A stretch of 64,000 bases of DNA from Escherichia coli. Its GTDB lineage: Bacteria; Pseudomonadota; Gammaproteobacteria; Enterobacterales; Enterobacteriaceae. The notes under the pieces are model-generated. The model was not told the DNA's origin. It worked only from the letters and a program-made list of their open reading frames with translations, and ran no database searches. The position numbers and the translations under genes were made by a program. The DNA lies in the NCBI RefSeq assembly GCF_001677475.2, contig NZ_CP015229.1; one strand, given 5' to 3'. Shown here in pieces: positions 9,640 to 11,430 of this stretch; position 1 is the first letter of the stretch; the number at the start of each line of letters is the position of its first letter.

Positions 9640-10353
9640 ATGGCTGTTGTCTGTTCAGTTATCATGGTTTGCTCCCCAATTAATATTTTTCTTGAAAAGG
9701 ATAAGTTGTCACTTAAGCCCGGCTCAGTCGTTCTGGCCACCAAATGCATCAGGGAGCTGTTCCTTATGCATTATGGCAAAGTTAAAATTGTCGATATAAA
9801 CCATTCCATAGTAAGTCAATATCTGGAAAGTCAGCATAAGCTGACGAGGACTCGTCTGACTGACATTCCGCTTTACCTGTTCCTGGAACCCAACAATCCT
9901 GCGTTGGCTGCGGCTTTAATTACCAGCCAGAGATTTTACGGAGATACCACGGATATGTTTCTTATGATGGCCTGCCTGTCGCTGTTTGAATCAGATGAAC
10001 GGATGTCATTATTTTTAAGTGGATGTTTATCCAGTATAAGTGCCAAAGTCAGAGCGATAATTCAAACAGATATATCTGCAAACTGGATGCTCGGTGCGAT
10101 TGCGTTACGCCTGCATATGAGTGAGAGTTTGTTAAAGATAAAACTGAAAAATGAAGGGCATATGTTCAGTCGCTTGTTGCTGGAAGAGCGGATGCGGGTT
10201 GCTGTAAATATGTTATGTTCCCGGGATGGGTATGGACAGACAGTGGCAGAAAAATGCGGTTATTCAAGTAGGTCCTATTTTATCTCTGTATTTCACCGCT
10301 ATTATGGCTTCCCGCCAGACAGATATGTATCTATGCAAGGGCTTGATTTTTGA
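9640..10353 (+). CDS. AraC/XylS-family transcriptional regulator (cargo gene)
   Basis: 237 aa; C-terminal AraC-type HTH signature (GYSSRSYFISVFHRYYGFPPDRY); AT-rich relative to surroundings. Confidence 0.6.
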   Translation: MAVVCSVIMVCSPINIFLEKDKLSLKPGSVVLATKCIRELFLMHYGKVKIVDINHSIVSQYLESQHKLTRTRLTDIPLYLFLEPNNPALAAALITSQRFYGDTTDMFLMMACLSLFESDERMSLFLSGCLSSISAKVRAIIQTDISANWMLGAIALRLHMSESLLKIKLKNEGHMFSRLLLEERMRVAVNMLCSRDGYGQTVAEKCGYSSRSYFISVFHRYYGFPPDRYVSMQGLDF

Positions 10354-10379
10354 TTTCATCTGATTATTATTTTCGGCCC

Positions 10380-10455
10380 GGCCCTTTAGCTCAGTGGTGA
10401 GAGCGAGCGACTCATAATCGCCAGGTCGCTGGTTCAAATCCAGCAAGGGCCACCA
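10380..10455 (+). tRNA. tRNA with CAU anticodon (Ile2/lysidine-type, ileX/ileZ-like, or Met)
   Basis: Cloverleaf folds: acceptor GGCCCTT/AAGGGCC, D-arm GCTC/GAGC, anticodon loop CTCATAA, T-loop TTCAAAT, 3' CCA; close to E. coli ileX. Confidence 0.8.
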
Positions 10456-10459
10456 CCTT

Positions 10460-10541
10460 ACCGCCATTAGCTCATCGGGAAGAGCAAATGACATGATAAC
10501 AGGGTTGTTGGTGCGGGGTTCGAGTCCTCGATGGCGGTCCA
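10460..10541 (+). tRNA. tRNA-like sequence, aberrant (possible degenerate argN-like or pseudo-tRNA)
   Basis: Acceptor stem CCGCCAT/ATGGCGG + CCA, D-arm TAGCTCA..GAGC and T-arm GGTTCGAGTCC present, but no canonical anticodon stem-loop could be folded by eye. Confidence 0.4.
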
Positions 10542-10554
10542 TTATCTGCATCAT

Positions 10555-10631
10555 GCGTTGTTAGCTCAGTCGGACAGAGCAATTGCCTTCTAAGCAATCG
10601 GTCACTGGTTCGAATCCAGTACAACGCGCCA
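10555..10631 (+). tRNA. tRNA-Arg (anticodon UCU)
   Basis: Acceptor GCGTTGT/ACAACGC, anticodon stem ATTGC/GCAAT with loop CTTCTAA, T-loop TTCGAAT, CCA end; argU-like. Confidence 0.8.
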
Positions 10632-10804
10632 TACTTATTTTCCTGGCTCGCTTTTGCGGGCCTTTTTTGTATCCGCGCCACGCCCGGCGCATATCAAAAA
10701 CCACAGAGCCTTTCAGGGGTGAGCTTACGGGATGGTCAGTGTGACTTTCTCTGTGGGCTGGTCACCCCCGGGCGCAGGCTCACCCACTAAAAGGAAAAGT
10801 CACG

Positions 10805-11230
10805 ATGTTTGGTATTTTTAAAAAGAAAACCCGCAAGGCCATTACCGAAGTGAAGAAGATGGAGAACCGCGACGCAGTGGAGGCGACCGTCTGGGGTGCG
10901 TATTCCATTGCATACGCTGACGGCACCTGTGACGCGAAAGAAATCGCAGTGCTGGAGAAAACCATTGCAGCACTTCCTGCCTTTGCGCCGTTCTCCGGTG
11001 AGATTGCACAAATGAGTGCAAATATCCGCGCCCGTTATGAAGCGTCACCGCGTTCTGCCAATGCCGAAGCCCTTCGTCAGCTGGCTGATGTTGCCGGTAC
11101 TGATGATGCAGTTAATGTGCTGTGCCTGTGTCTGGATATCGCTGACCAGGACGGCATTGGCCCGGATGAAGAAGCGCAGCTCAAGAAAATTGCTCAGGCG
11201 CTGCAGTTGCCGCTGGAGCAGTACCTGTGA
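10805..11230 (+). CDS. TerB-like domain protein (cargo)
   Basis: 141 aa; two helical repeats with conserved D/E pattern (DGTCDAKEIAVLEK ... DQDGIGPDEEAQLKKIAQAL) resembling TerB-family proteins; recalled resemblance only. Confidence 0.45.
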   Translation: MFGIFKKKTRKAITEVKKMENRDAVEATVWGAYSIAYADGTCDAKEIAVLEKTIAALPAFAPFSGEIAQMSANIRARYEASPRSANAEALRQLADVAGTDDAVNVLCLCLDIADQDGIGPDEEAQLKKIAQALQLPLEQYL

Positions 11231-11379
11231 AAAGTGCGCGCCTTGTGCTGGCTGCCATCCTGCTGTTTCTGGTAGTGGTGGTGGATTTTACCGGACGGCT
11301 GATGTCGGTACTGGCAGATGGTGTGCTGGTGGTGATGGTGCTGGTCGTGCTCCGGCCTTTACTGCGCAAATCTGAATAA
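11227..11379 (+). CDS. Small hydrophobic membrane peptide (about 50 aa, GTG start)
   Basis: GTG overlapping TerB-like stop, GGAGCAG RBS-like; translation [50 protein letters not shown]; not in the 60-aa ORF track. Confidence 0.3.
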
Positions 11380-11430
11380 CACCACGCAAAAGGCATCTGC
11401 GGGTGCCTTTGATTGGGTGTTGTTTTTACG

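Follow-up and report, generated by a model that had tools for sequence, protein, structure and literature searches.

A TerB-family tciAB gene pair and its structured leader in the Q-to-lysis slot of an Escherichia coli prophage

The closest described relatives of the genes examined here are tciA, tciB and tciC of phage P1, annotated 'by homology' in the GenBank record from which our P1 gene details are taken (AF234172). All three are non-essential by CRISPR interference (PMC10695390) and are transcribed in P1vir infection. P1-like phage-plasmids have eight hypervariable regions, of which these genes make up one, and in one subgroup about half of the members have lost them (PMC9603915). A second point of reference is provided by the ter operons, in which TerB and TerC form a core complex and which have been linked to resistance to colicins, phage, zinc, manganese and tellurite (PMC12054061). 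'Standalone' TerB has also been described in Erwinia jumbo phages (Iyer et al., PMC7824862). We analysed a 64-kb window of Escherichia coli contig NZ_CP015229.1, to which all coordinates refer, and describe a TerB-family gene, tciA (10805-11230, + strand, 141 aa), its overlapping neighbour tciB (11227-11379, + strand, 50 aa) and the structured leader that precedes them (10675-10804, + strand). All three lie between the Q antiterminator gene and the lysis genes of a lambdoid prophage.

The pair is tciA-tciB of P1, already named and annotated. Window TciA is 85.8% identical to P1 TciA over its full length by tblastn (86% in a global alignment) and TciB is 43% identical and falls in the same PHROG; gene order and overlapping start and stop codons are likewise shared, as is the presence of tRNA neighbours, which in P1 are trnI(CAT), Asn and Thr. 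The two settings differ in that the P1 pair belongs to the C1-controlled ban operon, whereas the window pair lies behind Q/pR' in the late region, and in that P1 lacks the structured leader. There is also no tciC in the window, where a tblastn search with P1 TciC returned nothing below E 0.89 and terminators follow directly after tciB. The first-pass annotation of this DNA, made from the sequence alone, did not recognise the TerB-like gene and its peptide as a characterised phage module. As a gene pair they are in fact on record, in AF234172, in PHROGs 632 and 1470, as DUF3927 and in the names assigned by the Prokaryotic Genome Annotation Pipeline (PGAP); the description of their function as uncharacterised stands, given the homology-based P1 annotation.

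Comparison with Shiga toxin (Stx) phages defines the position of the pair. In phiSTEC1575-Stx2k the gene order is Q, TrmB, AraC-like, tRNA-Met(CAT) (that is, ileZ), argN (TCG), argO (TCT), stx2A, stx2B and holin, and window positions 9160-10680 are about 91% identical to this phage. The similarity stops just past the argO terminator, so that tciAB stands exactly in the place of stx2AB, in agreement with the earlier proposal that this is the Q-to-S position where Stx phages carry tRNA genes and stx. The window thus shares its slot, the argO terminator and the Shine-Dalgarno context with Stx phages of the 933W type (ileZ-argN-argO-stx2AB), but differs from them in its cargo, in a decayed argN and in a long hairpin leader that is absent before stx2A. 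Most probably, the interval represents the 'moron' slot that lambdoid prophages usually have between Q/pR' and the lysis genes, here comprising four separately mobile modules: the TrmB-like and AraC genes; ileZ, the dead argN and argO; the tciA-tciB cassette; and the lysis cassette. The identity and architecture of the individual parts can be stated with high confidence. In this sense the locus is real but ordinary, one more routine case of a Q-to-lysis slot filled by swappable cassettes of known and already annotated kinds, with tciAB where close relatives carry Shiga toxin; the leader RNA may be its one new feature.

On profile evidence, TciA is a true TerB homologue. The protein matches phrog_632 ('tellurite resistance') at 4.3e-65. 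A single TciA sequence gives a borderline match to Pfam TerB (PF05099; independent E-value 1.1e-3), and a profile was therefore made from 93 full-length relatives. This family profile matches the solved TerB of Klebsiella pneumoniae (2JXU) with an E-value of 9.9e-31, residues 4-143 aligning with 10-150, and 90 of the 93 relatives match Pfam TerB at E <= 1e-3 (best 2.1e-24). The TerB likeness first suggested for the 141-aa protein is thereby upheld. An NCBIfam search assigned no family to either TciA or TciB. The AlphaFold2 model of TciA has six helices and a predicted local distance difference test score of 92.9; a Foldseek search of the PDB with this model gave as its top and only credible match 2h5n (PG1108; probability 1.0, template modelling score 0.51-0.56), which the TerB-family profile also matches in sequence (E 0.0011). 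The nuclear magnetic resonance entry 2JXU was not ranked by Foldseek for the TciA model, so the claim of a TerB fold comes mainly from sequence-profile homology. TciA is all-helical and soluble: it contains no hydrophobic segment, its N-terminus is rich in lysine (MFGIFKKKTRK) and its net charge is negative. Relatives detected by tblastn occur in P7 and in lambdoid, N4-like, Erwinia jumbo, Pseudomonas, Vibrio, Pantoea and Sinorhizobium phages; an exhaustive search of 1.84 billion cluster representatives yielded only 175 relatives.

The likeness of TciA to TerB of terZABCDE operons consists in full-length homology, an all-helical make-up and repeated DG...E motifs. Unlike those operons, however, the window has no adjacent terC, terD, terZ, terA or terE, and where the partner of ter-operon TerB is the multi-pass TerC, that of TciA is a 50-aa DUF3927 peptide. 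TerB by itself would not be expected to confer a tellurite phenotype. No ter genes are annotated in any homologous locus inspected; the neighbours in the window are tRNAs, the DUF3927 gene and the holin gene. Furthermore, none of the proteins compared with the defence models of PADLOC-DB (TciA, TciB and the AraC-family protein) had a match at E <= 1.

The partner peptide, TciB, matches phrog_1470 ('TciB-like') at 1.9e-23, and an identical protein with a precomputed PF13064 (DUF3927) assignment is found on 508 contigs; proteins identical to the window pair occur on hundreds of E. coli contigs. TciB has a grand average of hydropathy of 1.54, with two hydrophobic segments (approximately residues 6-19 and 32-42) around a conserved core and basic residues at both ends, which fits the small hydrophobic peptide of about 50 aa described earlier. 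The GTG start of tciB overlaps the TGA stop of tciA (GTGA) and is preceded by GGAG 8 nt upstream, so that the two proteins are probably made together. Of the translational coupling asserted in the first-pass annotation, the stop/start overlap and the GGAG motif are thus present, and the coupling itself is a prediction from them. The peptide open reading frame (ORF) is conserved: tciB is kept in 79 of 80 close IMG/VR loci, in 69 with a 4-nt overlap and GTG start and in 10 with a 1-nt overlap and ATG start. The ratio of non-synonymous to synonymous substitution rates is 0.058 for tciA and 0.40 for tciB, whose other two frames are closed, and both genes are under purifying selection. A tciB-like ORF directly follows tciA in P1, P7, JLK-2012, the Salmonella N4-like phage FSL SP-076, the Erwinia jumbo phage Caitlin and the Pseudomonas phage phiK7B1, as well as in an environmental phage contig where it has not been called as a gene. 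It also adjoins the Erwinia jumbo-phage TerB gene of Iyer et al., whose passage on that gene makes no mention of it. The TerB-DUF3927 pair has therefore been kept together in temperate phages as well as in those of the N4-like, jumbo and Nickievirus groups, with hosts from at least four genera, and it could show what a minimal 'Ter' unit does and inform the role of TerB in the ter operons of pathogens.

Conserved acidic residues in both proteins allow TciA-TciB to be read as a small metal or ion unit, in which TciA binds a divalent cation through its DG...E motifs and TciB acts as a minimal conduit in place of TerC. The invariant residues of the family alignment do form two repeated motifs of this kind (D39 G40 E46 and G117 E122), there are weak profile matches to the EF-hand protein troponin C (E 0.1-0.3), and D20 and D31 of TciB, which would lie inside the membrane, are conserved across distant phages; moreover, TerC-family proteins and ter operons respond to zinc, manganese and tellurium (PMC12054061). 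We nevertheless regard such a unit as improbable, as the EF-hand matches are not significant, no metal-related gene lies nearby, and Erwinia TciB has N and Y at the positions of D20 and D31.

The surroundings of the pair are mosaic. Of the 80 related loci, 10 share the Q of the window, 8 its holin and 13 its AraC gene, and similarity to the window breaks at approximately 10640-10680 and again at approximately 11450 (the latter in 48 related loci), which defines tciAB as a terminator-bounded cassette. Its left border coincides with a terminator after argO (10645-10662, terminator scan), and its right border is formed by back-to-back terminator-like hairpins at 11385-11401 (- strand) and 11430-11445 (+ strand), in a region extending to 11452. 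One IMG/VR contig (L017) is identical to the window from Q through Rz. Window-type tciAB is present in 354 of 5426 complete E. coli genomes, at 421 places of which 170 are on plasmids that we take to be P1-like, and a second type of tciA, whose product is only 43% identical to window TciA, occurs in several copies in O157:H7. A separate observation concerns PP818812.1 (L003), deposited as 'Actinobacillus phage vB_Apl-pPE4', which is 94.6% identical to the window at the DNA level across tciAB (TciA 99.3%) and shares its tciAB gene order with the E. coli prophage STEC309; its stated host looks doubtful.

The leader of tciA was missing from the first-pass annotation, as was a 65-aa TrmB-like gene discussed below. 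Across 69 loci, nucleotide diversity in the leader core is 0.043, compared with 0.29 at four-fold degenerate sites of tciA. Two hairpins are predicted by RNAalifold, a small one at 10675-10690 and a long, imperfect one at 10709-10794, at the base of which CCUUU (10709-10713) pairs with AAAGG (10790-10794), part of the tciA Shine-Dalgarno sequence. We evaluated this fold for covariation in an independent MAFFT alignment of 13 diverse leaders. In that alignment 96% of cells pair and 12 of 27 pairs are changed on both sides; shuffled alignments give 5.8 +/- 1.4 such changes, with none of 500 reaching 12, and slid partners give at most 6. The leader thus adopts a Shine-Dalgarno-occluding fold that is supported by covariation. 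Translation of the leader itself can be set aside: a 29-aa ORF starting at ATG 10731 was considered as a leader peptide and rejected, since single-base indels in related loci show that the leader is not coding.

The same element precedes other genes. Covariance-model matches were obtained before both types of tciA, before tciA of the Erwinia phage Caitlin and before a kilA-N gene. The leaders of the two tciA types are approximately 86% identical, against 43% for the proteins that follow. The Caitlin leader scores 58.6 bits (E ~4e-11), and its small hairpin keeps the loop and has three stem pairs changed on both sides. In pPE4, a leader precedes a kilA-N gene downstream of the lysis genes, and the AUG aligned there (L003 5917) corresponds to an internal, in-frame ATG (MKAITLFN...) within the longer annotated frame; for this kilA-N gene, the leader alignment suggests a coding start at an ATG 38 nt beyond the annotated one. 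In IMG/VR, a pattern scan found the leader at no fewer than 120 loci, and a downstream start codon was found in 117 of those listed. In these 117 listed matches, the leader is followed by an intact tciA (57), a truncated tciA (about 16), a gene for an Rha-family regulator (about 30) or a kilA-N gene (about 10); an HNH gene and a gene for a GIY-YIG-like protein each follow once among the matches listed. Outside the window, copies of the leader lie at L006 1191-1343, L003 5775-5920 and L097 2981-3122, and in complete E. coli genomes it occurs in 949 of 5426 (~17%), at 2334 places and in up to 6 copies. Rfam 15 gave no match to 10665-10810 at E <= 1, and nothing meaningful for the rha/kilA-N version.

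Before stx2A the terminator, the small hairpin and the Shine-Dalgarno context are shared with the tciA leader and the long hairpin is missing. This leaves room for reading the ends of the leader as recombination joints, and more broadly for regarding the element not as a functional RNA but as a conserved DNA linker, used as a homologous-recombination joint for moron swapping, or as a promoter or operator. Such a reading would account for the position of the element exactly at module junctions before the unrelated genes tciA, rha, kilA-N and HNH, and the rha/kilA-N version carries TTCACA-N16-TATTAA hexamers, read from the sequences, around the small hairpin. A recombination linker, however, predicts sequence identity and not covariation, and the compensatory changes described above are far above both the shuffled and the slid controls. 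The pairing always covers the Shine-Dalgarno sequence, and an Erwinia jumbo phage retains the element although its sequence has diverged. We therefore judge a non-functional linker unlikely. In the loci examined a terminator lies directly upstream of the leader, the terminator sequence varying from locus to locus.

We propose instead, although still tentatively, that the leader represents an undescribed family of cis-regulatory RNA, in which a long, covarying hairpin that sequesters the Shine-Dalgarno sequence would gate, in portable form, the translation of accessory genes (tciA, rha, kilA-N, HNH). A specific signal would open this gate and, in the present case, time the TerB-DUF3927 pair. 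The opening signal could be, for example, a late-phase factor, Hfq together with a small RNA (sRNA) directed at the A-R-N-rich 3' arm, cleavage by RNase III, or temperature. That one leader is shared by several moron genes suggests that a single portable RNA device gates their translation and, if true, this bears on how prophage cargo is kept silent or timed.

Transcription of the cassette can be considered in light of its flanks. The left border of the slot is a Q-type late antiterminator gene (8258-9079, + strand), whose product matches phrog_127 at 1.2e-110 and phrog_25523 at 2.3e-112, both 'anti-termination protein Q-like'. Behind it lies a putative pR'-like late promoter, TTGATT-16-TAAATT (9085-9112, + strand), whose hexamers were read from the sequence and score 8/12, under the threshold of the scanner; its -10 element, TAAATT, is the same as that of lambda pR'. 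A terminator found by scanning (stem 9160-9179 plus a T run to 9186, + strand) would correspond to tR', and three further terminators lie between the pR'-like promoter and the holin gene. The right border of the slot is the lysis cassette (11492-12665, + strand), identified from its ORFs as holin, lysozyme and Rz/Rz1, the holin matching phrog_20 at 1.1e-32 and phrog_9876 at 2.8e-35. Expression of stx2 in the same slot depends on Q/pR' and, by analogy, Q-dependent late expression of tciAB is plausible.

On this basis, tciAB would be transcribed from pR' late in lytic growth, as stx is, once Q suppresses the four terminators, and translation of tciA, and by coupling of tciB, would be gated by the leader until a signal opens it. 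In the inner membrane, TciB is predicted to form a helical hairpin whose two ends both face the cytoplasm. TciA, which is acidic and helical and begins with a lysine-rich segment, might then work at the membrane together with TciB, in the manner of TerB with TerC. Until lysis, the pair might keep the producing cell's envelope or membrane potential safe from colicins that form pores, from superinfecting phage or from oxidative and metal stress. We put this envelope-protection reading forward as a possibility, drawn by analogy with the ter systems and tentative to a similar degree as the gating proposal. On this reading, tciAB encodes an accessory and not an essential function.

Several observations weigh against this account of the pair. 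We found no experiments on TciA or TciB in the literature, so every functional step is argued by analogy. No Ter phenotype is known for TerB by itself. Work cited in PMC12054061 places the minimal ter unit at TerC-TerD, neither of which is encoded in the locus; nor is there a PADLOC match. The P1 pair belongs to a C1-controlled operon, not to a late one. In addition, the two genes are not always found together: distant TerB-like phage genes, in Vibrio BUCT194 and in three metagenomic contigs, occur without tciB, and E2348/69 has a DUF3927 gene without tciA. Finally, alleles of the two genes have been shuffled. Between the window and P1, TciA is 86% identical and TciB 43%, and P1 and P7 have almost the same TciB together with TciA proteins that are 86% (P1) and 34% (P7) identical to that of the window. 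This independent shuffling implies recombination at the tciA/tciB junction and argues against a tightly co-evolving TciA-TciB complex.

The same ter phenotypes would support a different role, in which tciAB is expressed in the lysogen as a defence or superinfection-exclusion module, a phage version of the 'Phi' and colicin-resistance properties of ter operons. Those operons give phage inhibition and resistance to pore-forming colicins (PMC12054061), and phage Ter genes, including those of Erwinia jumbo phages, have been proposed to act in competition with superinfecting phages (Iyer et al., PMC7824862). The cassette sits in the moron slot bracketed by its own terminators, and tciABC is hypervariable in P1-like elements, as defence genes often are. 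Expression in a lysogen is nevertheless at odds with several features of the locus: the scan of the window finds no promoter-like site between the upstream terminator and tciA, the tciA Shine-Dalgarno sequence is occluded by the leader, PADLOC gives no match and the P1 copy lies in a C1-repressed operon. The pair is also carried by N4-like, jumbo and Nickievirus phages, which we take to be obligately lytic and which would have no lysogen to protect; this, like the transcription of the P1 genes in P1vir infection, favours a role in lytic growth over lysogen defence, which we consider unlikely.

The position of the pair before the holin gene would be explained if tciAB were a membrane pair of antiholin-like or holin-modulating type that tuned the timing of lysis. 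In the window, in STEC309 and in pPE4 the pair directly precedes the holin gene, and TciB, being small and having two hydrophobic segments, resembles many holin-family proteins. The arrangement is not general, however. The holin of the window is the one found in only 8 of the 80 loci, others having a different holin/endopeptidase set; the pair lies away from lysis genes in P1/P7 and in N4-like, jumbo and Pseudomonas phages, and in O157 and JLK-2012 it is followed by an esterase gene. With neighbours this variable, and with no fitness defect on knock-down in P1, we regard a dedicated function in the timing of lysis as very improbable. Protection of the producing cell until lysis is the reading that we retain, at the tentative level given above.

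The tRNA genes upstream of the leader number two rather than three. ARAGORN and Rfam agree on a tRNA with anticodon CAT at 10380-10455 (+ strand; 72.5 bits) and a tRNA-Arg (TCT) at 10555-10631 (+ strand; 71.7 bits), each with a Rfam E-value of about 1e-15. In a three-way alignment the former is identical to annotated ileZ of Stx2 phages, encoding tRNA-Ile2 after lysidine modification, and PGAP labels its homologues tRNA-Ile; the latter is nearly identical to argO. The third of the three tRNA-like genes reported in the first pass, at 10460-10541 (+ strand), is called by neither program. It is homologous to argN of Stx phages (tRNA-Arg TCG) and alignment shows intact acceptor, D and T arms, a replaced anticodon arm and a 4-nt insertion; the remnant folds no better than shuffled sequences (z -0.7), and it is a pseudo-tRNA. 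Among related IMG/VR loci, 8 of 80 have the two-tRNA state of the window and 9 of 80 an intact trio. The argN-remnant state is also seen in EDL933-type prophages, as a 100-nt gap between tRNA-Ile and tRNA-Arg (L097). The remnant could represent a stable end point of decay, or else a tRNA-like RNA that serves some other purpose.

A service of these tRNAs to tciAB was ruled out, since tciA and tciB contain no AUA, AGA or AGG codons. These codons make up 36-56 per 1000 in the AraC, holin and lysozyme genes, and ileZ and argO would supply the decoding of AUA and of AGA/AGG there. As a separate observation, tRNA genes adjoin tciAB in the unrelated phages P1, P7, JLK-2012, Erwinia Caitlin and Pseudomonas phiK7B1, and a tRNA lies within 1.5 kb upstream of tciAB in 38 of 80 close loci. 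The sets differ by phage (Asn/Thr/Gly, Trp/Cys, Ile/Arg, Ile/Lys/Thr/Gly/Val), and their closeness to tciAB may come from a common hot-spot for cargo or from a link in function.

The remaining module of the slot is regulatory. The TrmB-like winged-helix gene (9306-9503, + strand; 65 aa) matches phrog_331 at 2.3e-37, is named 'TrmB family transcriptional regulator' by PGAP and is followed by a terminator found by scanning (9490-9507). The AraC/XylS-family gene (9640-10353, + strand; 237 aa) encodes a C-terminal AraC-type double helix-turn-helix (Pfam HTH_18 8.9e-10, HTH_AraC 1.4e-05) and matches phrog_1450 at 2.3e-94; its best NCBIfam model is YdeO (7e-30, residues 1-229, below the model cutoff), with GadX next. 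Its GC content of 38-45%, compared with about 53% in the flanks, agrees with its description as an AT-rich AraC-family regulator, and all the other features listed in the first pass, namely the tRNA cluster, the TerB-like gene, the peptide and the terminators, likewise lie where they had been placed. A sigma-70-like site (9577-9604, score 10/12) lies upstream of the AraC-type gene, which probably has its own promoter and would act in the lysogen.

Prophage AraC-like regulators of this type, PsrA and PsrB, have been described beside Pch regulators, where they activate gadE/hdeA and lower type III secretion (PMC10877973). The AraC-type gene of the window resembles PsrA, PsrB and PatE of enterohaemorrhagic E. 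coli (EHEC) O157:H7 in its AraC/XylS C-terminal helix-turn-helix, its similarity to YdeO and GadX, its AT-richness and its location in a lambdoid prophage. Of 5426 complete E. coli genomes, 724 carry it, the median copy number being two. An O157:H7 copy with 94% nucleotide identity lies behind Q in the company of ileZ-argN-argO, and a PerC/Pch gene is found some 4 kb away, a proximity also reported for psrA and psrB; the two proteins fall in one 90% cluster. From this genomic context the gene is probably an orthologue of PsrA/PsrB; weighing against the assignment, it derives from context and not from the named sequences (Z1789/Z2104). The TrmB-like and AraC/XylS module would then be of the PsrA/PsrB kind, which in EHEC raises host acid-resistance genes and damps type III secretion.

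The 3' side of the moron recalls a further group of elements. The convergent anti-sRNAs AgvB and AsxR are located 3' of a moron (Tree et al. 2014), TerB genes are among the conserved neighbours of pasA and pasC (Zhu et al. 2026), and these prophage sRNAs, with PasD, share the moron neighbourhood of the window locus; the leader, in contrast, is a 5' cis element and not one of them. Identity of the leader or of the region 3' of tciB with PasA/PasC/PasD or AgvB/AsxR was ruled out, given that E2348/69 sequences (coordinates from PMC8550237, Table S6), PasA and PasD2 among them, have no BLAST match in the window and AgvB and AsxR no Rfam match there. The minus strand of the back-to-back terminators 3' of the moron (11380-11452) would give a CA-rich RNA (…AAAAACAACACCCAAUC…). 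In E2348/69, a gene for a 247-aa multi-pass membrane protein precedes the DUF3927 gene (L178, NC_011601.1 740129-741328), and PasD2, placed by the coordinates of PMC8550237, follows it after 41 nt. Peptides of the TciB kind may thus pair with other proteins, and the 3' region of this cassette may be the origin of PasD.

The prophage as a whole is lambdoid and is integrated at or near a tRNA-Ser gene of E. coli or a close relative: the hya operon at the far end of the window is 98.2% identical to E. coli, and beside it lies a tRNA-Ser(TGA) gene that, from this position, we take to be serT. The host flank (52540-59000; tRNA-Ser(TGA), hyaB-F) has a best match of 98.2% among 5426 complete E. coli genomes, which is low for core genes, and the host may therefore belong to a divergent Escherichia lineage. 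A large-terminase-like ORF (13689-14882) has an odd hydrophobic, low-complexity C-terminal tail (…FFLFVVFVFSGWFWLFSSFVYCTVYCKNGL), which suggests that the gene is interrupted or frameshifted near 14700 and that the prophage may be defective.

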